A DNA stretch of 60,324 nucleotides, filler included, from Sphacelaria rigidula (lineage: Eukaryota), in NCBI GenBank assembly GCA_964200075.2. It is 8 parts of 8 records of this genome, joined end to end, with 100 filler letters (N's around TTAATTAATTAA, not from the genome) between each part and the next. Parts side by side here need not be neighbours in the genome. Positions count along the whole stretch, not along the records: positions 30,215 to 37,667 come from CAXNAA020014851.1; 7 more parts are not named here. One strand, written 5' to 3'. A program made the position numbers and the translations under genes. The notes under the pieces are model-generated. The model made no database searches, was not told the origin of the DNA, and worked only from the letters and a program-made list of their open reading frames with translations. Below are positions 6,903 to 52,872 of the stretch, one piece after another; the first letter of the stretch is position 1; each line of letters opens with the position of its first letter.

Positions 6903-7094
6903 CACCAAAAAAAATGTCACCCGCGGGGGGGGGGGGAAAAAAANNNNNNNNNNCGAGAGCACCGGAACGGTGAGAAGCCCCACGTCAAACCCCCCCCTCC
7001 CCCCCCCCCCCCCCCAAATCGAGACCGTCACCAAATATGGAGACCATTTGCGACCCGGGAGGTAAGAAAAATTATGCACGACTGGATTATGCAC

Positions 7095-7454: not shown

Positions 7455-7554
7455 NNNNNNNNNNNNNNNNNNNNNNNNNNNNNNNNNNNNNNNNNNNNTT
7501 AATTAATTAANNNNNNNNNNNNNNNNNNNNNNNNNNNNNNNNNNNNNNNNNNNN
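7455..7554. other. Artificial contig linker (44 N + TTAATTAATTAA + 44 N)
   Basis: Identical 100-bp spacer recurs seven times; the core places stops in all six frames. Confidence 0.97.
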
Positions 7555-15008: not shown

Positions 15009-15108
15009 NNNNNNNNNNNNNNNNNNNNNNNNNNNNNNNNNNNNNNNNNNNNTTAATTAATTAANNNNNNNNNNNNNNNNNNNNNNNNNNNNNNNNNNNN
15101 NNNNNNNN
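15009..15108. other. Artificial contig linker
   Basis: Same 100-bp N/TTAATTAATTAA/N spacer. Confidence 0.97.
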
Positions 15109-22561: not shown

Positions 22562-22661
22562 NNNNNNNNNNNNNNNNNNNNNNNNNNNNNNNNNNNNNNN
22601 NNNNNTTAATTAATTAANNNNNNNNNNNNNNNNNNNNNNNNNNNNNNNNNNNNNNNNNNNN
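22562..22661. other. Artificial contig linker
   Basis: Same 100-bp spacer. Confidence 0.97.
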
Positions 22662-30114: not shown

Positions 30115-30214
30115 NNNNNNNNNNNNNNNNNNNNNNNNNNNNNNNNNNNNNNNNNNNNTTAATTAATTAANNNNNNNNNNNNNNNNNNNNNNNNNNNNNN
30201 NNNNNNNNNNNNNN
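30115..30214. other. Artificial contig linker
   Basis: Same 100-bp spacer. Confidence 0.97.
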
Positions 30215-30453
30215 TTCAGTTTAGTTTTTTGGTCTTTTTTTTTTTTCCTCGGGTGCCCTGTTTTTTTTTTGACCCCCAACATATTTTTTGTCCCCCCTTG
30301 TTTTATTCCGAAGTTTGAGATTTTTCGGGGCCCCGAAAGTTAGTTACCTACCCACCAACTGGCCCTCTCCTCCTAAATATTGATTGGTTGCATCGGCACC
30401 CATGCAGGTAAGGAGGTACATAGGCTGCCCGGCGCGCCCCTTTCAGCCAACTA

Positions 30454-31950
30454 CAGGCTTGGTCACGGGAAAAACAAAACAAAACACTCATCGGCAAAAC
30501 TTCACGCCGGTGTAAGGAGTCAGACTCTGAAATTTTGCACAGGTGTTCTATGGGTCATTACGCAACTTTCCAAGGTCGAGTTTGTTTTGGACTTTTTCAC
30601 TTTTCCCCCCGTTTTCCCGGGGTCCCTGTTTATTCGGGGAAACTTTGATCGGGTTGGACCCCCGTAAAACGGTAAAATATAGAAAATAAAAATGCTCGTC
30701 CATCTACAGTTGCGTAACGACCCAAAGCACAGTTGTGCAAAATTTCAGGGTCTATTTCTTTAAAACGGCGTGAAGTTTTCCGCGTTTGTGCGATGAACCT
30801 TGCCGTGCCACGGTGAAACGGCAAACTACTAGATTTTAGAATTAAAATGGCGTTTTTGGGCTTTGTTCGACGTGGAAACATGAAAATTCAAGCACCAGTT
30901 AATCGAGTTTGGCCACGAAACTTCGCGGGGTTCTGTCTTGGATTTTGCGGCGACAGATCGTTTGCGAAAGAAAATGAAAAAAAATATCGTAGTGCCGGTT
31001 TCCCGGGGTCCCAAAATGGACGACTTCGAAAAAACGACTTGGATCCCGTCGGACCTCCGAAAATTGGTAAAAAATTCAAGAATTAGAAAAACGTCGTTGA
31101 TCGAAACTTGCGTAATGATTCACAGCACATTTGTGCAAAGTTTCAGGATCTAATTCTTGACAAATGCGTGAAAATTTGCGCGTTTGTGCGAGGATGTGGA
31201 CCTGAAACGTCCAAACTCCTAACTACTTGGTTTGAGTATGAAGAAAATCTTTGAGGGTGAATTTCACGCCAAGGCAGGAAAAATTGTATGACATTTTTGA
31301 GTTTTTCCACCGAACTTCATACATGTGTTCCTTGGACCATCCCGGGACGCATCATCTTATTATTTTTCCTTTTGATTCATTCTGTATCGCCTTCCGGGGA
31401 TCTTTGTACTGGGACCGCCGGAAGCCGGTAGAGAACGGAGAAACTTTTAACCGTTAAGAACACAATTTTTCCATTTGGAGCATCAATACCTATCGAACTG
31501 CCAAGTTTGAGGATGATCTGAGCTTTTCCACTACAGATATAAGGGGAAATCTTCACGAGGCTCCCTGAGTCTTTCCTGCGTATCATGAGTGGAAATTAGA
31601 CGACGCCAAACTCCACATCCCCGCAACATTACGGTTACGGGTATAATTCGACCCCGTCGGAACCGTTTTCAAACCCGTTTCTCCCGTTAGATTCTCGGGG
31701 TGATGACGGTCACTGCGATTTGACGCATTTGGAGATTCGGTGGAAACTGGGCTAGGAACTCATATTTTCAATTTCGGAACTGTTTGAAAGGTGCTGATTG
31801 GTCGAGACACGTTTTCGTCCATAGCGCCACCGCTACAGCCTTGAACAAAAATTCGGCCATGTCACCCTCTTCGTCCGTTCATTGCGGTCAGTATGATACC
31901 ATGTATGCGACTATTGGGTGCGCGTATCGCAGAAGGCATTTGCTGATGAC

Positions 31951-31982
<32 letters not shown>

Positions 31983-32005
31983 TTTTTTTCCCGTGAACCA
32001 GCCTG
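30454..32005. mobile_element. Non-autonomous DNA transposon with TA TSD (Tc1/mariner-like)
   Basis: ta|caggcttggtcacgggaaaaa ... tttttcccgtgaaccagcctg|ta; internal homology to 1823-2871. Confidence 0.72.
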
Positions 32006-33251
32006 TAGGGCTTCTGTATTTTGCCGCAGTACTCACATATGTCACTGCTGCTTTGTATTTTGGGCGTCGATAAAGATGGTTCTGACAGCGGGTAGGATGT
32101 GACCCCGCATACATGTACAAAAAAAATAATAGGGAACAGAAAAAGCTCCCCGAGGAAGGAAGTGGGCTTGAAAAAAAAAAGAAGCTCTCCTCCGACAACA
32201 ACCGCCCCTCAGAGCTGGCTCCAAGAAGTGAGAATGGGCCTTTAGGGCCAAAGCCTGCGGAGCAACGGTTTTGTCGTCGTCATCGATGCTCTTCAGTATT
32301 GCAAATTTTCCCTTCAAGTGATGCTACCTTAGGGTTGTGTGTGTATGTGTGGTTGCGTTTAGTGGCATTTTCGACCCCTGCCGTCCCTCGAGCGAAGTCC
32401 GTGGTCTGGAGGAGGTCAACCGATGTCGCCCCGGGTGTAGCGCGCGCCTTGCAAATGAGTATCCCGGATTGGATCATGACCAACACTCCCACTCCGCGTC
32501 GACTATTGTAAAAAAAATCTTTGCGCAATTACTCATCTCACGTTTTCATCGAAAAACCCAAATGAGTAATTGACTCACGAAAAAAAGGGGTTCATGGGTT
32601 TGTTACGCGGCCTCAAACGCTCGTTGTGTACGTTGCATCCGCACATATGGCTGCAAACGTTGTTGAACGGTGTAATGAATGAATGTCGGTGTTAATACCA
32701 GAGGGCACTCGAATGTTTTTTTTTCGCCACTTGTTCCTCTTCCTTGCAAGAAAATAGACTCGGTACGGTAGTTTTTTGTTCTTCATTTTTTTTAAATGCC
32801 CTTTAATAATATGATATTATAATATAATATTTTTCAAATTCATGTGTACGTATGCATTTTTTTTGTCTTTTATTCGTTGTCCATGTCTTATACATTCTTA
32901 TTTTCCTTCTCTACTTGTGTTGCTCCGCCCTTGAGCAGTTACAACACATAAGTGTTGGTATATGCAAAACGTTTTTTTTTTTTTTTTTTCTCTAAGTGTT
33001 TATATTAGGTTTTTCACTTTACACCAGATTCACACTCTGACTAATTTATGGTTCCGCCTGTGTAGTGTTTCCTTCTTTTGCTGTTGTCCGAGGAAGGAGA
33101 GATGTTGAAAGTATGACGAATATATAAAGGTGTATGTACGTACAAAGCTGATCGCCTCGGTGGCTCAGTTGGAAACCTCGAAACCTTCCACACCCTAGAC
33201 GATACAAAATGTTTCCAATACATATCAGTCGATCATATTGGAATTTTGCGA

Positions 33252-33537
33252 TATATTGCCGGTGTAATATATATTGGTACCCTTAGACTGCACATGTATT
33301 GCGCGCCCAATATATATTGATGTCGTGGGACTGCATACATATTGTCCGCCCAATATATGTTGGTACTATTGGGTTGAACACGTATTGTCCCATCAATATA
33401 TATTGGGGCAGCGTGGGCGACAACATATTGCACGACCAATATATATATATTAGGGTCGCATTGATGAGAACATATTGACCGGTCAATATATATTGGGGCA
33501 GCGTGGTGACAATGTATTGGCTGGTCAATATGTATTA
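33252..33537. repeat. Array 1: 7 units, period ~43 bp, YRTATTG-N6-CAATATATATTG-N17/18
   Basis: 12-mer starts at 33265, 33308, 33351, 33394, 33437, 33484, 33526. Confidence 0.9.
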
Positions 33538-34451
33538 GATATTGTAAGTATCGTGTACGCTCTAGGAGAAATCCAGACGTGATGGATGCCGGAGCCCGTG
33601 CAGATTGGGAAAAACTTTAAAGGGAGCCGCAGAAGTTCGCGTGCATTACTGCGGAAAGTTGTCGAATGCGTTTGATATATATATATATATACTGCTGAGA
33701 AAATATGGTGACAAAAGAGGCGACTCGGTATGTATGCCTCCTGATACCTATCTGGTCACCGGTGCGGGGCCGCCCATCCCCTTTCCAGCATGTAATATAA
33801 ATATCTTGGCTAAACACCACGACGACAGAAAACGCGGGTCGATATGCGCCTTTTGGTACCCCTGTGATCACCGGGGCTGTGTTGCTTATACCCTGGACAA
33901 TATAGTATGTTCCAATATGATACCAATACTTTGTATTGGAGTCGGCGAAAATATTGTCCTTTCAATATATATATATATTGTGTTGAGATGTCCTCGGAGA
34001 TATTGAAGCAACAACACATATTGCTCGTGTCATGATCATGAAGTAATGTATGTCACTATATATTGGACATGCAGTTGCTCCGAGAATAAAACATTCAATA
34101 TACATCGTGCATGCCGGCCGTGTATGTATTGAAGTGTCAATATATATTGAGTCAAGGCGATGCGTAGCATATTGTTACCATAATATATGTCGAACGCAAA
34201 CCATGCACAAGTATCGTTTTTCCAATACATGTTGCGCACGCTGATCGGATAGCTATCGTGCAGCCAATATTTATTGAACACGCTTGCGGAGGAATACATC
34301 GAGCATTTTCGGCATGTAAAATACGTCTTTGAATGGCGCGCGCGAACAAAGAACTGCCCACAATACTAATTCCAATACACTTTCCAATCTATATGTTGAA
34401 CATCAATATATTTTGCTACATCAACATGTATTGTGACCGTCGGTTCCCTCG

Positions 34452-34816
34452 TGTATTGTCCACCCAATATATATATTGGACGCATTGACGCACGACATAT
34501 TGGGGCGGCGATATATATTGGCGCTTCGGGTGTCGAGTATATTGAATCGTCAAAATATATCGACCTCGGCTGGCAGCAAATATATTACTCGATAAATATA
34601 TATTGGTGCCTTCTCGCACCAATATATTGCTCGGCCAATATATATTGAGGTGGCGCGTGTCGTGATATATTGTTCGGTCGATATATATTGCGTGTCGCGA
34701 GCCTTGATATATTGATGGCACAATATATATTTACCCTCTCTCGTGTCATCATATTGCTCGCCCAATATATATTGACCACCCGACGCCTCGATATATTGAG
34801 CGGGCAATATATATTA
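34452..34816. repeat. Array 2: 9 units, period 42-43 bp, same bipartite motif with variable spacers
   Basis: 12-mer starts at 34465, 34509, 34551, 34594, 34636, 34679, 34721, 34763, 34805. Confidence 0.9.
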
Positions 34817-35174
34817 CATATTGTACTGTCCAGGGTGTGAAACCTTCAGACGATTGGGGACGCGGGGTCGAATCTCGGTGGAGTCATACGACCTGTTTTT
34901 TTTTTCTGTCGTATATTATGCCCAACGATGGAGAGCTACTATGTAATGTAATGGGTACACAAAATTCAACTTCACGGTCGACGAGGGAACGGGACCGCTG
35001 AACCCTCATCACGATCAAAAGAAAGGCAAGCAACGTAGAAGGAAGGTGGAGTGCTAAAACAAAAGGGGAGAGGAAAAAAAAGATCTGTGCTGACCTTATT
35101 CGTGTGTGTCCCCAGCTGATGCGCCCACATTCCTATATACCGGAAGTTGTAGACTTACGCCCAGAATAGATGAC

Positions 35175-35600
35175 ACGGGATTTTACGAATTGGGGATGGG
35201 TTTTTTATCGGGGACGAGAACCCGGTGACTTGAAATCTTCATATCCACACCAAATATTCGAAATATGGTTCCGTTTCTTCACTTGCTGGTAGCTATTGAC
35301 AAGTACTACGCGCCATGCAAATATGGAGTTCAATAACCGAAATGTTGGGGTCCTAGGTGAAGAAGAAATCTTCGGGTCCGTTCGGATCACGGAAATTCCC
35401 AAAAAATGTTTTTTTCACTCAGGACCCCAACATTTCGGCTTTCGAACTCCACATTTGCATGGCGTGGAGTAGTTATCAATATCTACCAGCACGTGAAGAA
35501 ATGGAACCATATTTCGAAAACTTGGTGTGGATATGACGATTTTAATTCTCCGGGTTCTCATCCCCAACAAAAAGTCCATCCCCAATTTATGAAATCCTGT
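35175..35600. mobile_element. Palindromic MITE (~425 bp) with 7-8 bp TSD tagatga(c/g)
   Basis: Ends acgggattttacgaattggggatgg / ccatccccaatttatgaaatcctgt; ~190-bp inverted arms. Confidence 0.8.
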
Positions 35601-36442
35601 TAGATGAGATGGCAATACACACATACACACATTTTTTATACAGTATGTCCTTTTCTCGACAGGTTCCCTCCTGTTCAATCTGTGCATCCCCATTTTTTTT
35701 TCTTTTTTTTTGTTTCGGCCATTTTTTTCCTTTGCCAAGTCACTTCAGCTTACTTTTTTTCTCGCGCCCCGTTCAAATCGCCATTTCACTCTTTATTTCA
35801 AGATTCCTCGTCGTCAACGATTTTCGCTCGCCGCAAGCGCTTGGCGGTAAGCGTCATTTTACAAGTTTTGGTGGCGTGTAAATCGTCCACCATCGGGTGT
35901 AGCATCGCGGCTGCGCGTGCGCCAAGGTGCATGAAAGGAGCAGTCGGAGGTGTCCATTTTTCAAAGTGGAAATGATTTTTTTTATCGCGATGCCAGTAAG
36001 TAGTACGACTTTCCAAAAAAAAGAAGAGATAAAAACGTGTGCGCAAGAAAATATGCGAAGGTACATCAAGGGTGTCAGCGTAAGAGTTGCGGCTAGTAAA
36101 ACTGGCGACCAAGGACAACGCATGGTGGCGACAGCATGCCCCCGAAGAGTAGTATGGCCGGCGAGTGTACCGCGTGTGCCGCAAGATGTGTCCAGGTAAC
36201 TGCGTTGAAGCGATGACGAAATGTGGTCGTCATATCGAGAGATGAGAGTACTGGCACCACGTTCAATCATTGAGGGTACAGCGCTTCGTCTCAGATTTGA
36301 GAGTGCTTTCTGATCAATTGCGTCGAATGAAACCGTCAGAAACAATAAATCGGGAAATCGGGAAATCGGGGAACTACCACCATGGAAGGCTCTTCAACCT
36401 CACTCTGCTGCTTATTTTCTTGGCTCGCTCATCGTCCGTCAG

Positions 36443-36570
36443 GCGGCGAGCAACTATCACGCGGCTTGCCGCAAGCACCGACAGCAGAAGCTACAAGAGG
36501 CGGCAGAGGCTGCCGCGGACGAGCACCCCAGGACTATTCAGGGGGTCCGCAGGGAGCGGGATCGTGAAAG
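36443..36570 (+). CDS. Putative isolated exon of an unknown gene (AASNYHAACRKHRQQKLQEAAEAAADEHPRTIQGVRRERDRE)
   Basis: Pyrimidine tract + tcag| acceptor, aag|gtgtgt donor, GC-rich; two frames are open, so the frame is uncertain. Confidence 0.45.
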
Positions 36571-36957
36571 GTGTGTGTGCCCCTCGCGTAGCAGGTGGAC
36601 GGTGTCGTCTCGAAGGAATGGATCCCTCGCCGTGTTCTAGACGGCGGTATATGTATGTGTGTATATATTTACTGCATAGCGGCGGGGCCGCGCACGAATT
36701 CTGCTGGGAGCCCCCGTCCGACTTCGAACTCATCCGATTACTTTCCCGTCATTCAAACATAATTTTTGTGGTGTGGGTTTTTGTTGAAACCGTCTCATCA
36801 GGCGTTTGGTCCAGACTCACCGTGGGAAGATGGAATATTCCCCGGGGAAGTAGGTTTGAGCAATCATGTCTCCTGCAACTGTAGGTGGGCGATCACAGCC
36901 GAGGTTTACAGGCTGGACCGCCCAGGAAGCCACCAGGAATGTTGAAAATGTTGAAAC

Positions 36958-37243
36958 GCATTTTCTTCGCTCAATTTTGGATCGTGTTCGATGAAATTTT
37001 GACACGATGTACAGGACGTACGTGCGAACACCTCATCTTCCATCCCCTGTTTTTGTTTTTCTTTCTTCGTGAGTTATTGGCGATTTTGTTCCGTAAAAAC
37101 TGTTCTGAAATGTCACTTCGCCAAAAACTCACGGAGAAGAGGAAACAAAAACAGGGGATGGAGGGTGAGGTGTTCGCACATACGTCCTGTACATCGTGTC
37201 AAAATTTCATCGAACACGATCCAAAATTGAGCGAAGAAAATGC
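36958..37243. mobile_element. Palindromic MITE-like unit (~285 bp)
   Basis: ~120-bp near-perfect inverted arms starting gcattttcttcgctcaattttggatcgtgttcgatgaaattttgacacgatg. Confidence 0.8.
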
Positions 37244-37310
37244 ATCATTCCGTCGACAAGCGGTTTCCATAGTATATGGAGGTGGACCAGTTACGAATAA
37301 TTCAAACGCA

Positions 37311-37591
37311 ATTCCCGCGCTCAATTTTGGATCGTTTTCGATGAAATTTTGACACGATGCACACAGGACGTATGTGCAAATACCGAACCTTTCCTCCTAT
37401 GTTTTTTTGTTCTTCTGCGTGAATTATTGGCGATTTTGTTCCGGAAAAATGTTCTGAAATGTTCCGTCGCCAATAATATATCGAATAAAAGAAAAAAAAA
37501 CACACGGGAGGAAGGAAGGGGTGTTTGCACATACTTCCTGCACATGATGTCAAAATTTCATCGAAAACGACTGAGTATTGAGCTCGGGAAT
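37311..37591. mobile_element. Second, more diverged copy of the same palindromic unit
   Basis: Matches 36958-37243. Confidence 0.75.
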
Positions 37592-37667
37592 CGTGCCACA
37601 GCTTGTGCGGCACCACGCGGCACAAAACTGACTGTAACCGTAAATCCAATCTCAGCCGTTTTCTTTT

Positions 37668-37767
37668 NNNNNNNNNNNNNNNNNNNNNNNNNNNNNNNNN
37701 NNNNNNNNNNNTTAATTAATTAANNNNNNNNNNNNNNNNNNNNNNNNNNNNNNNNNNNNNNNNNNNN
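37668..37767. other. Artificial contig linker
   Basis: Same 100-bp spacer. Confidence 0.97.
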
Positions 37768-37859: not shown

Positions 37860-39740
37860 CGTAGGCTATGATGAGTTACTGTTGGTACTCTCGGTCCCAG
37901 GTGCTGTCGGTGCATATTGGCCTGCAGCTTTCGCGTGCCGTATCGCGCTGCCTCTGCGTCATCCTTTTGGCACCAGTCCGCCATAAACCTTTCTGCTCCC
38001 TGCTCAACACAGCTGTGCCACTCTACTGCATTTAAGGCTCTGGTGGTCCACCCCTGCCATTCGATACTAAGCGCCTTCATGTCTTCCGCTAGGCAGCGGA
38101 TCCAGTCCTGGTGCCTGCCATTAAACTCTCGTTCTTGTCCCTTCACGACTGTAATTTCAGCGAACATGACGTGTTTCGGTATATCCGTTTGGGTGACATG
38201 CGCGTGACGAAACCGGCAAAATGGAGTCTCCTCTTCCCCACCGTCGTCTCGATGCTTTCCCACCCTGTCCTCGCGAGGGCCTCTCAGTATGACATAACGT
38301 GGTCTGTGCGATTGCGCTTGTGCCATCCAAGACAGCGCCTGAGCAAAGCACGGTGGGCCGTGCGCCGTGTATTGTAGTGGTCATCGAGAGGGGTCCATGT
38401 GACGCACCCGTACGGAAGCGCTTCGACAGCCTCGGTTTCGATCACGCGGATTTTGAGGTGGACGGCCGGGTTCGGTCGATTGTACAGTTGGACTTTGTAC
38501 TTGTGGCAGCTCGACCATGCCCCTTGTACGCGCTTTTTGATCTACACCGAGAGGTCCCCGCTCTCCGTAATCGACCCCCCCAGGCATACGAAGTTGTATG
38601 TTTGTATACCTGGCCAGCCGCGTTGATTTCGAGGTGCCCCGCCTGTGAGTGCAGTCGAATGGTCTTCGTCTTTGCTTCCCATGCGGTCAACCCGAACTCT
38701 CCGCAGATCGTCACAATCACAGTCATCTTCTCGAGGCTCGATGATGTCCGCGAGACGATGCAGGCGTCATCGGCGTACAGCATACTCCATAAGGACGGTA
38801 CGTCTTCCGCCGCGATTGTTATGGCCACGTCTGGCTCGACCCATGCTACTGCACATTCCTGTTGGAAATCTCCCTTTTCGCGCTTCCGGACTCGCGCCCG
38901 GTCCCCCGAGATGTCAGGGTCATTGCGGAAGGTTGCCAGGGCCACTGTGAGTACTGCCGTGAAGAAAATGTTGAACAGCAGTGGTGCTAGAACGCATCCC
39001 TGTTAGAGGCCCTGGTCGATGTCGAACCATTCCGAGTATTCCCCGTTGTTCGTGCGCACCCGAGCTTGCATGCCATCCTGGAATTGGTGGATGATCGAGA
39101 GCACGATGGGTGGGACGCCATAGCGTTCCAGAACTTTCCACGGCGATGGGCAGTCGACAGAATCGTATGCTTTCGTGAGGTCGACGAGACATACGTAAAG
39201 CGAGATCTGTCGTCTCCGGTCAAGTTCCTGGAGTCGTCGGACGGTGAACATCATGTCGACGGTTGAGCGTCCGGGGCGGAAGCCGCACTGCTCTTCAGGC
39301 AGAATTCCATTGCCGTCGCAGTAGATACTTCGGCGGCGGACGATTATCTTTAGCACTTTGCCGGCATGTGACACGAGTGAAATCCTCTGTAATTTCCGCA
39401 TTCCATCCGATCGCCCTTTTTCTGGAGCACGATGACGGTGGCATCCTTCCATTCTTGTGGTACGGCTGCTCCGCCCCAGATGTCAACGTTGAAAGCATGG
39501 AATCTCTGTAGTCGGCTAGTGTCGTCGCCGTAGACGAGTATCTTCAGCAGTTCATCCGGCAGATCTGGGCCAACGGCTTTTCCATTGGATGTAGATCGTA
39601 TGGCATCCGCTGTCTCGTCTATCGTAGGCACCTCATCTAGCGACGTGCTCGGAAGTCGCGCTTGGCGTAAGTCGATGATTGCTGTGTTGAGGTAGGGTGA
39701 CTTGGTGTTGAGGAGGGTGTGAATCCACTGTACCACCCGT
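37860..39740 (-). mobile_element. Decayed, 5'-truncated RTE-like LINE (reverse transcriptase pseudogene)
   Basis: Collinear RT motifs [70 protein letters not shown], and C-terminal PKHVMFAE; frameshifts and a stop. Confidence 0.92.
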
Positions 39741-41460: not shown

Positions 41461-41766
41461 GGGGTCACACAGGAGGAAGGCCAACACAGTAGTTTTTATA
41501 TATATGTTTTGTTTTTGTTCTCCACCTTCCTTCTGTGGTGCTTGCCTTATTTTTTTCATCTAGAGAGGGGTTCAGCACTCTCTTTCCCTCGTCGACCGTG
41601 AGGTCGATTTTTTGTGTACCCACGACACACAGAAGTCGCTCTCCACTGTTGGGCACTGTGTGAGAAACAATCTGAGATCGTGTGACTGCACCCGAGAATT
41701 GAACCCACCACCCAAGCGTCGGGAGGTTTCCAGGTTGCCAGCCGCGCCACCGAGACGACCGGACTA
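41461..41766 (-). mobile_element. Intact tRNA-derived SINE (~305 bp) in an intron
   Basis: Degenerate A and B boxes at the 5' end; body matches 34848-35115. Confidence 0.75.
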
Positions 41767-43674
41767 TTAATTAGTACGTGCTTCTTAATTTGGAGCATTT
41801 AGTAGCAGGCGTGGTTTTCGTGGTTCCGAGGGGAGTGATGAGCAACAGCTGTGAGAGAGTGTGCGCGCCTGCGCCTGGATACTGTACTTTGTATTTTTTT
41901 CGTGGTTGCAGTGTAGTACAGCAAAGCGTCCCGTTTGTCATCGCCACAACGACGTCGCGAACCAAGCGCAAGTGATGATTGGGTATGGGGTTGGAGATGT
42001 GATCCCCGCAACACTACACCCTTGACGAAGTGATGCTCGCGCCCCCCTTGCTTAGTTTGGCGGTGGTTGTCGGTCTTGTTTTCGCACACAAACGTACCTT
42101 GTGGTACGGAGGATCTGGTTGAAGTAAGAAAGGCTTTTCGCACTGATTCATTTTTTTTCTGCTCGTTCTTGCTTGGTGGTGGCACAAGCACAAAGCATAC
42201 CTCCGTATCTCAGGATACGAACATGATGTTATTGGGTGCGGGCTTGGAATTTTTCATGAGGGTAGATTTATGCACACCCTGGACATTGAATCCCACTGTC
42301 AAAAGGTATAAAGCGTAGAGTATCGACGATAGATTTTATACCGTGCGCAGTACATTTTTCGACAACGAAATCTCATGTGCAGGGTATGGATATATGTCGA
42401 ACGCGTTATTGCGTTCGTCGAATAGGAACTGCCGGTGTTGACATTGGTATGTACTTCCTCTGTCCTACAAGATAAACCCGATTGGAAAATCTCATTGGAT
42501 AAGCCCGTGGTGAAATATTGCGGTAATGTACCCAGTGCAGTTGTTGTCGACAAACGGACCCCCAACACGTCTTCCACATATGGTTACCATCATGTAAATA
42601 TATAGATATATATCCCCAGGGGATCACATGTTGTCATCCCCGGCGTGAAAAAATCACAAAGTGGGCTTATGTAGTGAGATATTCCGAAGGAAAGCCAGAA
42701 TTTTTGCCGATGGAGCAGCAGGAGATGAGCCGACAGCAGTAGGACCCGCGCCGACAGAAGCGGAAACCGCACCAACAGCATCAACAGTAGTCTGGTTCGT
42801 CGACATGATCTGCAATGCTCAAGAAGGCGGTCCGCAGGGTGTCCTCGCTTGTTGACGGCTGCCGCCCTTGGGAGCGCGGACTGCTGTGTGCTCAAATAGT
42901 GCTGTGGTGGCGGCAGACTGTAAAATGACGGTTTCGGGCGGTTCTCCGAAACGCCTCGGGAACTATGAAAATAATCGTTTCTCCAAAAGTCGATGAGAAG
43001 GGTGTCAACCGGGAGATTCCGGTTGTGCACGACTGACACACTCTGATCGCCGTGAGAGTAGCTGCTTGTCTATTGGGGGCTCGGCAAAAGCCTCGGTTTT
43101 GAGTTCTGTCCCAAAACTTCACGAGAACAAGAAAAAAAAACGCTCGGGAAAGCCAACAATACGCACGAGAAATGCGGCAAAACCTCAAAACGGGCCTACG
43201 TTGTGGGACAGAGGAAGTATTCACGTATGCGTTTTACTTTTTGAAGGTCCACCTGATTTCAGAGGTTTGTAATACTCCGGTCGAATAAACTTGTGTGTGA
43301 AGGACGTGTTTTGATTCCTAGACAACGCGAATCATGCCTGCAGCACCCTTGCGCGCTGACACACTCACCTTTTGTCTTCCTTCAGGATAAGGGGTCGGCA
43401 CGAGAGTACTAAGGCAAACCGGAATCCGAATGGCTGTCTTGTGTGTGGAAGAGGGCTCACGAAGTCACAATAGAGAATGTGCGTGTAGCCCATGACTCCT
43501 GTACTCGTACTCCTGATTACTGAATCATGCTTGGAAAGTTTAGTGAAAAGTAAATGGCCTATAGCTTCCCCCATCGCCGTTCTGTTTTCCAGCCTCCAAT
43601 TATTCCAAGGCATAACTTTGAACAAGAACATGTTCCAACCCACACGTTGGCTGCTTGCCGTGTACAAAAATTAG

Positions 43675-45220: not shown

Positions 45221-45320
45221 NNNNNNNNNNNNNNNNNNNNNNNNNNNNNNNNNNNNNNNNNNNNTTAATTAATTAANNNNNNNNNNNNNNNNNNNNNNNN
45301 NNNNNNNNNNNNNNNNNNNN
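45221..45320. other. Artificial contig linker
   Basis: Same 100-bp spacer. Confidence 0.97.
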
Positions 45321-50880: not shown

Positions 50881-52772
50881 CTTCGCATTAAAAAACCNNN
50901 NNNNNNNGGACGCCTTCCGTGGTCACAGGCTACCAAAAATCCAAGAAAAACAAAATAGACCCAGATTAAAAACTCACAAAACGCGATACAAGCTAAACAG
51001 GAATGAAGAAGAAAGAAGAAAGGGAGTACATGTGGCTAACCTCAGAAGATCCGGTGCGGCAGGTGGCCATTCGGACTTCAGGGGGTGACACTCGTTTTTT
51101 TCTAACTCGACGCGCGACAAGTAGAAATGAACGCAGGGTCCGACTACGGCCGACGCTCAAGGCCCCAAATACCGCCAAAGAACTAAAGAACTAAGAATCG
51201 CAGCGTTCCATCTTGCGGCCTCTCGAGGGACAGCCGTACGTACAAGCATACCAGGTGTACCAAGACAAGAACTACATGACATAACGACACCCCTCATCGG
51301 GGGGATTCACCCCCCACCCTCCACTTCTCTGGACCGTCGCCATTGCCGTGCTATTTGGGCTTCGCTGGTCTCCCATCTAATCGCACGCAGTCGGCTGACC
51401 TTCTCTTCATTCCTGTGCCATGAGCTCATAAATCTCTCCGCTCCCTGCAGCACTCCCGCGTGCCACGGCACCCCCCCCTCCTTGTTTGCTGCTGGGGTCC
51501 GTAGGGCGCGGTCGATTCCGAATGGGTCTTGCTATTTACGTCAATGTTGGCGCACTGTGTTACATCCGCCAACATTGACGTAATCTGTACATCCGTCAAC
51601 GTTCAAATCCGTCCCACAAGCCCCGCATGGACACAGCAACACATGAAAAACACTCACACAGTCTCTAGCTATCGTTCAAGCCATCGCACGGAGCAAACGG
51701 ACCCGTACCGGATGAGATACATACGTGCTTAGCTGTCACAACGTTGTGCTACACACGATGCGCTGATAACAGAGGAGTGATCGAAAAGGTCACAAGCTTC
51801 GAATAGGCAAGCCCGGGCGCCGGTCGACACAACATGAAGTTGTTACCGTGAAAGCTGAGGTCATGGGCTGGGTATAGGGAGCGGGAAGACTTGATTCGTG
51901 TCCGCACTTTTCACAGCGGCAGCTTTGTAGAGTAAACGTGAGCCCGACACCGCGGCAAGCGGGGGGCACTGCTGGCTCATATTAGCATGTGAGTTGTTCT
52001 TTCTGCTTGGCGCAGTTTATAGCCGGGGAGACATTGTGAGCACAGAATTCGTAAGTCATAGATGCAGGGGCTACTCACGCGTGGTATGGCCTGTACTGTA
52101 CACGAATCATAGACCTGTCACGAAATTGTCTATACATTCCTCTACGTTGTCAAAACACAGTAGCACTGCACTGTGTTCACGCATCACCCACGTTGTACGT
52201 GTGGAGACTACAGTCGGTAGAATATGTGCCGGTTGGTGTGTAACGTATGCGGAGAAATACTCGCACACTTACATCTGTTGAGCACATATCAATCTATGCA
52301 CTATGCTCGAGCTAACTCCTTGTCTACCTTCCTGGTTTGTCTGTATTCTGTATCGTCTCGAGAAGCACCACCCTACCTGGGCATTGAGCAGCCTGCAGAG
52401 CTTTGCACACTTGAGAGTTGTAACAAACCTCAAAACGGAGCCAGCGCGCAAGCCGCTCAGCCAAGTCTGCTGCGAGCACAAAGTAGTGTTGGTGAGGGTC
52501 GGACTATGGCCTGATAGCACCGTCACACCGTGCTTTTCAGCCGAAGAAGCGTACACTTTACAGGGTGTAGCCTACTCTGTAGGTAGTACCCTCACAATTT
52601 TCGTCGGTCTTCGGGAGGAGAGACGAGGTATTTTTTTTAACAATTCTGTCCTCAGGTGTTCCACGCAAGACAAGTCATGACCGAGAGAGATGAGCCACAA
52701 AGGTTCCCATATTCAGCTGTTTCACTCGGGTACGCGAGCAGGTGCATCATGGTAAAGAGTGTTTTCGTGAGA

Positions 52773-52872
52773 NNNNNNNNNNNNNNNNNNNNNNNNNNNN
52801 NNNNNNNNNNNNNNNNTTAATTAATTAANNNNNNNNNNNNNNNNNNNNNNNNNNNNNNNNNNNNNNNNNNNN
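52773..52872. other. Artificial contig linker
   Basis: Same 100-bp spacer. Confidence 0.97.

Follow-up and report, generated by a model that had tools for sequence, protein, structure and literature searches.

Introduction

Besides Hermes, the hAT elements Ac, Tag1 and Tol2 carry subterminal repeats. FB and Galileo (P superfamily), as well as MITE-borne satellites, are elements with terminal inverted repeats (TIRs) whose bulk consists of tandem sub-repeats and whose unit number varies between copies; in these elements the arrays themselves form the inverted repeats and whole units are alike. For the locus studied here, the closest characterised analogues are the subterminal repeats of Muta1 (MULE) and of Hermes. 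Muta1 of Aedes aegypti, a member of the MULE superfamily termed a 'type 2 foldback' element, has target-site duplications (TSDs) of 8 or 9 bp; behind its short terminal motif come many 12-bp subterminal repeats, with sequence differences limited to the variable linkers between the repeats (PMC5499845). The same report describes that more repeats lead to more transposase binding and excision, and that donor cleavage in vitro was detectable only with a repeat present (PMC5499845). In Hermes, BED domains attach cooperatively to two subterminal repeats that together form a quasi-palindrome, and the subterminal repeats are arranged asymmetrically at the two ends (PMC10368747).

In this study, we analysed a stretch of 60,324 bases from Sphacelaria rigidula (hereafter the window). 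The studied locus is a dead copy of a DNA transposon that encodes no protein and is present in many copies, and its arrays, judging from their conservation pattern and from analogy, most likely serve as docking sites for the transposase of the element.

Results

Structure and insertion of the element

The element comprises positions 33189-34839 of the window (1651 bp), with 12-bp TIRs and a perfect 8-bp TSD. Its features and those of its host repeat are as follows.

33152..33188, plus strand: 5' part of a SINE-like host repeat, into which the element is inserted
33181..33188, no strand: left TSD copy AAACCTTC, identical to 34840-34847 (8/8)
33189..33200, plus strand: left TIR CACACCCTAGAC; a fainter likeness to the right end extends to about base 24
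33201..33252, plus strand: left leader with degenerate half-sites (CCAATAC, ATATTG at 33235, GATATATTG)
33253..33556, plus strand: left array; 7 units, each 42-47 bp long and built as RTATTG-N6-CAATATATATTG with a spacer after it
33557..33886, no strand: non-repetitive internal region (49% G+C) in which no coding signal was seen; an (AT)8.5 run occupies 33675-33691
33887..33950, plus strand: internal degenerate terminus-like sequence, TATACCCTGGAC... TTCCAATA, immediately preceding the long array
33951..34816, plus strand: long array on the right, with about 20 units that keep roughly to a single register
34828..34839, minus strand: right TIR, reading CACACCCTGGAC on that strand
34840..34847, no strand: right TSD copy AAACCTTC, matching the left copy
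34848..35085, plus strand: 3' part of the SINE-like host repeat, with an A-rich tail at its end

The two 12-bp termini are identical at 11 of 12 positions, and their similarity becomes weaker out to about 24 bp. The terminus-like sequence at 33887..33950 gave local alignment scores of 26 and 29 against the left and right termini, respectively, where the maxima of 300 shuffles were 24 and 26. Both parts of the SINE-like repeat align to a further copy in the window at 41490-41800 (minus strand); this uninterrupted paralogue carries the target once, AAACCTCC, and represents the empty site. The contig depth of the SINE-like repeat is about 10 times that of the element, many contigs start matching at 33152, and the flanks are separate contigs. 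The host repeat has a 'tRNA-like' look, as judged by eye alone; ARAGORN found no tRNA in the whole window or in the computationally rebuilt empty site, and an Rfam search of the paralogous SINE-like copy with E up to 10 found none either.

In addition, a second element of 116 bp was found at 42273-42388. It has the same termini, which can thus be regarded as a signature of the family, and an 8-bp TSD whose copies agree at 7 of 8 positions (GATTTATG/GATATATG).

Contigs from public runs revealed a high-copy family. A total of 12947 contigs of run X1 lay on 32900-35100 (SINE flanks included), each listed place within the element was covered by 57-111 distinct contigs in this run, and the depth of the arrays was similar to that of the unique middle region. 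Because TIRs come together with a TSD of 8 bp, an empty site in a paralogue and a family of high copy number, the reading of the element as a non-autonomous cut-and-paste (TIR, class II) DNA transposon is well supported, and the transposon that the original prediction had placed at 33189-34839 is confirmed by the same evidence.

Matches to public contigs outside the family are chance only. The motif scan of viral contigs yielded 6 loci with a single match each and that of metagenome contigs at least 119 loci; among these loci, 125 were checked, and core-like sites numbered three at most in each, with the TIR absent from all. Two-unit patterns numbered zero in viral contigs and zero in prokaryote genomes, and four bacterial coincidences were seen. 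When the core motif and TIR strings (both forms, both strands) were searched in literature text, the family was not found, and the TIR matches, unrelated by title or abstract start, were presumably primers.

Coding content

None of the 14 stop-to-stop ORFs of at least 75 aa within or overlapping the element matched a Pfam family, which agrees with the earlier statement that the element holds no effector ORF. The ORF running through the left array had no relatives in a protein search, and the neighbouring ORFs at 35857-37349 showed a non-coding look and no Pfam family. An Atlas search with a reverse-transcriptase fragment returned no taxa. No transposase was found among the ORFs of the window, and the scans of public contigs gave no autonomous copy.

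Architecture of the motif arrays

The 12-bp core CAATATATATTG (at most one mismatch) occurs 16 times in the window, always within 33265-34816, against an expected count of 0.14, and 16 occurrences were reached in 0 of 100 shuffles. Exact ATATTG/CAATAT hexamers numbered 50 in 33181-34860 versus 36 in the remaining 58645 bases. In register, the unit is RTATTG-N6-CAATATATATTG followed by a spacer of 18-19 nt, and the units of both arrays all point the same way, as in the original prediction. A weight matrix, partly circular in that it was trained on 14 of the units themselves, gave 23 plus-strand matches of 12.3-36.8 bits within the element; the best match outside the element had 13.6 bits, and the best on the minus strand 22.3 bits.

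Some two-thirds of the element consists of the arrays, which hold about 27 units (7 left, about 20 right), abut the right terminus and lie about 64 bp from the left terminus. Within the long right-hand array of the studied copy, units are degenerate at about 34000-34450 and the last nine (34453-34816) are well kept. The original prediction had counted arrays of seven and nine units. The seven on the left stand, but the nine on the right are not separate from the units at 33951-34320 that it had called degraded, with which they jointly form, roughly in register, about 20 units over 33951-34816.

Unit-to-unit intervals were 42 or 43 bp in 12 of 14 cases, and the two odd intervals (47 and 44 bp) coincide with (AT)n expansions inside the core, which are absent from part of the other copies. 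Within the studied copy, 16 of the 18 motif positions were identical in 13-16 of 16 units, and N6 was 6 nt long in all 16, with spacer columns at near background conservation. The six nucleotides had been taken as variable. Their length is indeed fixed, but their composition is not free, with 70% G+C; 11 of the 16 units carry C as the third and 12 carry G as the fourth nucleotide, and in the unit at 33472 N6 completes a perfect 18-bp palindrome.

The AT-rich palindromes (17% G+C) are clamped by GC-rich spacers (57-70%). This composition speaks for a motif array that acts as a cis element for a host factor and not for the transposase, candidates being a dimeric DNA-binding protein of the homeodomain or Myb kind, an element for replication or unwinding, or a signal in chromatin or silencing, and that was spread by the transposon; the CAAT...ATTG half-sites, which we take to be reminiscent of HD-Zip-type sites, were counted in the same direction. 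However, the arrays lie near both termini, the usual place of transposase sites, and we regard a host-factor element as improbable. The 116-bp element has no array motif and is neutral on this point.

Spacers within and between copies

Spacer pairs had a mean score of -0.90 versus -1.92 for shuffles, and their similarity was above that of all 500 shuffles. The spacer GGGCAGCGTGG..., the one that had already been reported to occur twice, is common to the units at 33382 and 33472, and two-unit duplications are visible, with 33382 paired with 33472 and 33425 with 33514. The earlier statement that the spacers are almost all different overlooks this residual unit-to-unit similarity.

Different units of the studied copy are only 68-75% alike, whereas other copies show about 85-95% identity to it across 4-7 units, spacers included (for example 24 differences over 34619-34842, 43 over 34321-34605 and 9 over 34592-34784). 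The spacers are therefore fixed by position in the family and do not turn over. Whether spacers are fixed or turn over had been set beforehand as a check, with fixed spacers counting for ordinary subterminal repeats, and by this criterion of the original prediction the arrays reduce to such repeats. Unit number differs between copies, as seen in joints that skip 43 or 44 bases and in back-joints from 33506 to 33473.

These observations bear on the possibility that the arrays are a minisatellite which the transposon carries and which is irrelevant to its transposition. In this view a unit within a small TIR element would have multiplied through slippage or unequal exchange and been passively taken along, and movement would depend on the TIRs and a few terminal sites alone. 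The spacer similarity beyond all shuffles, the two-unit duplications, the copies with one unit fewer or with extra units and the (AT)n slippage within cores all favour it. Neutral decay, however, should blur motif and spacers equally and add indels, and what we found instead are nearly invariant motif columns, an invariant N6 length and 42-43-bp intervals beside spacers close to random. Whole units are not alike, as they would be in an ordinary minisatellite; the 18 motif positions are kept and the spacers are weakly alike. Consequently, we consider a role-less minisatellite unlikely, although the contrast with minisatellites drawn before, sound as to whole units, is weakened by the residual spacer similarity and the variation in unit number. 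The arrays arose via tandem duplication, and afterwards only motif and spacing were conserved; intervals of 42-43 bp despite almost unrelated spacers indicate constraint on motif and spacing.

The studied inserted copy itself shows no motif protection, given that 15 of 24 within-array differences from most other copies fall in motif positions where about 10 are expected, a count among the differences listed (40 of 616 rows) and possibly inflated by wrongly placed contigs of other units. At 14 of these 15 positions the other copies carry the consensus letter.

Fixed spacers of common descent also weigh against repeat-spacer arrays that are transcribed and processed into guide RNAs of about 42 nt for an effector acting in trans, the alternative raised in the original prediction. 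Conserved repeats with variable spacers give it a formal likeness, and the array strand is predicted to fold more stably than shuffled sequences (plus strand z -4.66, minus strand z -3.31), which is expected because the motifs are palindromic. But the ORFs within the element and next to it match no known family, single-unit hairpins are weak (-1.5 to -3.0 kcal/mol as DNA), and Rfam gave no match in the whole window at gathering thresholds and, with E up to 1 over 33000-35200, two chance-level rows (21.1 and 20.2 bits, E 0.84 and 0.74). We judge such guide arrays extremely improbable.

Two candidate classes were rejected. A guide array of the CRISPR-like or transposon-nuclease dual-repeat type has spacers that vary between copies or lineages and an adjacent effector, and neither was found here. 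A single-strand transposon recognised through hairpins does not agree with the clear TIRs and TSD and the weak hairpins.

Superfamily signatures

The hAT terminal consensus is YARNG, the hAT TSD pattern is nTnnnnAn, and a hAT partner transposase would combine a BED finger, a DDE core and a hAT dimerisation domain; P superfamily TSDs are 8 bp long. The termini of the element start with CACAC and do not show the hAT end signature, and in both AAACCTTC and GATTTATG/GATATATG the second letter is A and the seventh is T, contrary to the hAT pattern. The original prediction had proposed that the 8-bp TSD fits hAT or P; the length does fit, and the hAT terminal consensus and TSD pattern do not. In length the TSD also agrees with that of hAT, usually 8 bp, and with that of Zisupton/KDZ, 8 bp in Zisupton (PMC12730594). 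It falls within the 8-10 bp given for MULEs in the Muta1 report (PMC5499845), as a Muta1-like foldback type would require, but the long (>100 bp) TIRs of inverted subterminal repeats of that type are absent, the inverted repeat being 12 to about 24 bp and the units all running the same way. The CACTA/Mirage/Chapaev/Transib group has 5'-CA(C)..(G)TG-3' termini and TSDs of 2-5 bp (PMC12730594); the termini of the element (CAC...GTG) fit this group, but its TSD of 8 bp does not.

The pairing of CAC...GTG termini with 8-bp TSDs departs both from the hAT ends and from the CACTA group with its short TSDs, and an uncharacterised algal DNA-transposon lineage may be considered. Its transposase dimers would sit on the 12-bp palindrome, a four-turn, same-face spacing would be truly required, and protein bound along the approximately 27 direct units would give a coated filament of unusual size and regularity. 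We hold this scenario to be doubtful. The four-turn phasing is arithmetic only, because any tandem duplication yields a constant period.

Discussion

Our analyses suggested that the family is probably one of high-copy non-autonomous TIR transposons with subterminal transposase-binding arrays, which grew by duplication and kept motif and spacing. The putative transposase, with its gene located elsewhere, would cleave at the 12-bp termini CACACCCTRGAC and generate the 8-bp TSD. Each unit would offer the 12-bp palindrome CAATATATATTG and an extra ATATTG half-site 6 bp upstream, sites that may be bound by dimers of the DNA-binding domain of the transposase. Our data show the anatomy of the element, its insertion, its family, the positional fixation of the spacers and the difference in conservation between motif and spacers; that a protein binds, that it binds as dimers and that phasing plays any part is what we infer here. 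The approximately 27 units could load many protomers on both ends, so that synapsis and cleavage would be favoured and mobilisation in trans would be efficient. Tandem duplication of one or two units made the arrays grow, after which a master lineage would have retained motif and spacing only as spacers drifted, and a later burst might have multiplied the already fixed array many times. The studied copy has decayed since and is probably immobile.

Several findings stand against binding arrays. The two end arrays are direct and not inverted as in foldback-type elements, the arrays occupy far more of the element than the approximately 200 bp needed by characterised hAT ends, and the 42-43-bp period is explicable by tandem duplication alone. 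A transposase-binding scaffold is nevertheless still the best reading, drawn from the conservation pattern and from analogy to known systems.

Compared with FB, Galileo and MITE-borne satellites, the element shares a bulk of tandem sub-repeats and variation in unit number; it differs from them in that its arrays are direct and the motif alone is kept. The sites of hAT elements are 4-6 bp long and irregularly spaced, in contrast to a 24-bp composite site at a strict period here. The likeness to hAT lies in the 8-bp TSD and in multiple short sites inside both ends beyond the TIR, and the likeness to Hermes itself in a quasi-palindromic pair of sites, which in Hermes is bound cooperatively by two DNA-binding domains (PMC10368747). 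Muta1 has repeats 15-16 bp apart (3-4-bp linkers) in long inverted TIRs of 145 bp (PMC5499845), versus the 42-43-bp period of the studied element. The latter further differs from Muta1 in that its unit is a palindrome plus an extra half-site, its end arrays are direct and fill about two-thirds of the element, and no MULE transposase was found among the window ORFs. The family opens no new kind of system and belongs to a known kind. If the arrays are transposase sites, it would provide a very clean natural example of subterminal-repeat evolution, with linkers that drift beside a preserved motif and spacing, and a handy substrate for the effects of site number and helical phase on transpososome assembly, as done for Muta1.

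The element and its insertion site

The element at 33189-34839, a DNA transposon copy of 1651 bp, starts with CACACCCTAGAC, its other end being the reverse complement of CACACCCTGGAC, and a perfect 8-bp direct repeat, AAACCTTC, stands on both sides of it. Three exact matches to the terminal 12-mer (position 9 being R) lie in the window, two at the element ends and one at 42273. The insertion interrupts one copy of a SINE-like repeat, and a second copy serves as a paralogous empty site.

Features around the insertion and joins of the window
33152-33188 plus 34848-35085: SINE-like repeat, copy 1 (~275 bp, A-rich tail), interrupted by the element
41490-41800, minus strand: SINE-like repeat, copy 2, uninterrupted, with a single AAACCTCC at the insertion point
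42273-42388: 116-bp miniature element, with termini CACACCCTGGAC and, on the other strand, CATACCCTGCAC
7455-7554, 15009-15108, 22562-22661, 30115-30214, 37668-37767, 45221-45320, 52773-52872: linkers (44 N, TTAATTAATTAA, 44 N)
6944-6953 and 50898-50907: further 10-N gaps

An uninterrupted paralogue with one AAACCTCC demonstrates that both the insertion and its 8-bp duplication are real, and together with the termini and the perfect flanking repeat it bears out the original prediction of a transposon. The window is made of eight ~7453-base pieces joined by seven identical linkers, one every ~7553 bases; because these joins are artificial, being adjacent across a linker does not mean being adjacent in the genome. 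The element lies within the piece 30215-37667. Both the second repeat copy and the miniature element fall in the following piece, so that window coordinates are no measure of their distance from the element. In public runs, the contig depth of the SINE-like repeat was ~10x that of the transposon. The head of this repeat looks tRNA-like by eye, and neither ARAGORN nor Rfam confirmed a tRNA-like head.

Anatomy of the arrays

The core CAATATATATTG, allowing at most one mismatch, was found 16 times in the window and always inside the element, against an expectation of 0.14, and 0/100 shuffles reached 16. Each unit reads RTATTG, six bases, CAATATATATTG and then 18-19 bases, and about two-thirds of the element consists of such units.

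Arrays within the element
33253-33556: left array, 7 units
from 33951: long right array, ~20 units roughly in register, the middle ones degenerate in this copy
34453-34816: well-kept outer part of the right array, 9 units

Thus, of the arrays of seven and nine units described originally, the left one stands, whereas the right nine are the outer part of a longer array. Intervals between units were 42 or 43 bp in 12 of 14 cases; the remaining two hold (AT)n core expansions, which part of the other copies lacked in the contig comparison. The six-base insert had that length in all 16 units, with 70% G+C and a tendency to a CG centre (11/16 and 12/16), and this brings ATATTG-N6-CAATAT close to an 18-bp palindrome, which the unit at 33472 has in perfect form. 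G+C content was 17% in the motif and 57% in the long spacers. A degenerate internal copy of the element terminus was also observed at 33887-33950, immediately before the long array. It hints at an origin of the 1.65-kb form in a shorter array-only element, with partial duplication of its left end.

Spacers and motifs across the family

The spacers had been taken to be almost all different. Within this copy, however, their mean pair score was -0.90, compared with -1.92 ± 0.23 after shuffling, and 0/500 shuffles reached the observed likeness; with the evident duplicate pair reduced to a single member, the score was -0.98 vs -1.93 ± 0.26 (again 0/500). Neighbouring-unit pairs resemble two-unit duplications, and the left-array unit at 33425 is similar to the first well-kept right-array unit, at 34453.

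Other copies were compared through Logan contigs from four coded public runs, placed on 32900-35100 at a likeness of at least 80% (12947, 15410, 882 and 172 contigs per run, the far more abundant SINE-like flanks counted in). In one run (X1), 57-111 distinct contigs covered each listed place inside the element. Contigs of 150-340 nt matched across four to seven units at ~85-95% identity, whereas within this copy one unit resembles another at only 68-75%; such matches require that other copies share the spacers of this one position by position. Summed contig depth, which is not copy number, was of about the same order over the arrays as over the unique middle region. In some contigs one unit is missing (43 or 44 bases) or extra units are present near 33473-33506. 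The array thus behaves as a slowly evolving tandem repeat, its spacers fixed by position and inherited instead of turning over, and by the criterion set in the original prediction this reduces the arrays to subterminal repeats. Contigs of the family also occurred under the label of another organism (B), mostly less than 90% identical, one of them showing just 9 differences from the 193 bases at 34592-34784; at least two labelled organisms thus share the family.

Among the best-supported 40 of 616 rows of other-letter differences, 30 fell inside the element and 24 within the arrays, 15 of these at motif positions. At 14 of these 15 positions, most other copies had the consensus letter and this copy deviated. 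Since this includes the "degraded" middle units, the arrays would be better kept in most copies than here, a result that misplaced contigs of other units would bias in the same direction. At 34106, 34191, 34215, 34300 and 34561, this copy reads ...TCG and nearly all others ...TTG. All five fall at the same half-site position, a recurrent T/C difference creating CpG; it may stem from a loss here or, alternatively, from decay of CpG in the other copies.

Coding and RNA signals

None of the 14 stop-to-stop ORFs of at least 75 aa within or overlapping the element matched Pfam, in agreement with the earlier remark that it holds no effector ORF. Across 123 window ORFs (all 91 of at least 110 aa and 32 of the 193 of 75-109 aa), the only Pfam matches were two reverse-transcriptase fragments, from a decayed retroelement:
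38445-39482, minus strand: adjacent RVT_1 ORF fragments (E 3.5e-11 and 2.4e-05)

Computed folds of the array strand are more stable than those of shuffled sequence (z -4.66 and -3.31), as would be expected of any set of palindromes, and a single-unit hairpin reaches only -1.5 to -3.0 kcal/mol (as DNA). Rfam gave no match at gathering thresholds; relaxing E to 1 brought up rows at chance level only. With position-fixed spacers, no ORF family, chance-level Rfam rows and weak hairpins, the speculative alternative of a dual-repeat guide array is unsupported.

Family assignment and proposed mechanism

Target site duplications (TSDs) are 8 bp in the P superfamily. The hAT end consensus and TSD pattern were both lacking in the element. 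TSDs are usually 8 bp in hAT and 8 bp in Zisupton (PMC12730594), and 8-10 bp in MULEs (PMC5499845); hAT, MULE, Zisupton and P are accordingly the candidate superfamilies. By its CAC...GTG termini the element would suit the CACTA group, whose TSDs, however, are 2-5 bp (PMC12730594), against 8 bp in the element. Scans of public viral, metagenome and prokaryote sequences gave no related contig or transposase partner among the matches listed. The 116-bp element is flanked by an 8-bp repeat (GATTTATG/GATATATG, 7/8 positions alike) and contains no ATATTG units; the group marked by these shared termini is thus wider than the array-bearing family.

From the anatomy of the element, a transposase made elsewhere would recognise the 12-bp termini and cut the target with an 8-bp stagger. 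The units would be putative transposase binding sites, given near-invariant motif columns and fixed spacing against nearly random spacers, arrays that adjoin the termini, and the characterised precedents Muta1 and Hermes. A transposon with binding arrays is, on our sequence analysis, the best reading, and the palindromic core suggests dimer binding. The 42-43-bp period is about four helical turns; tandem duplication also gives a constant period, and periods within ±1 bp of a multiple of 10.5 are not uncommon by chance, so that helical phasing of the units is at most a tentative proposal.

The observation of regular arrays was confirmed and made sharper, and the element shows subterminal repeats, a known phenomenon, in an unusually regular form. 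In one report, 12-bp subterminal repeats with variable linkers raise transposase binding and excision of Muta1, and a cleavage product appeared only with a repeat present (PMC5499845). The arrays here are direct, not inverted, so the element is not foldback in the Muta1 sense. For Hermes, another report describes a quasi-palindromic repeat pair bound cooperatively by two BED domains, as well as an asymmetric arrangement of sites between the two ends (PMC10368747).
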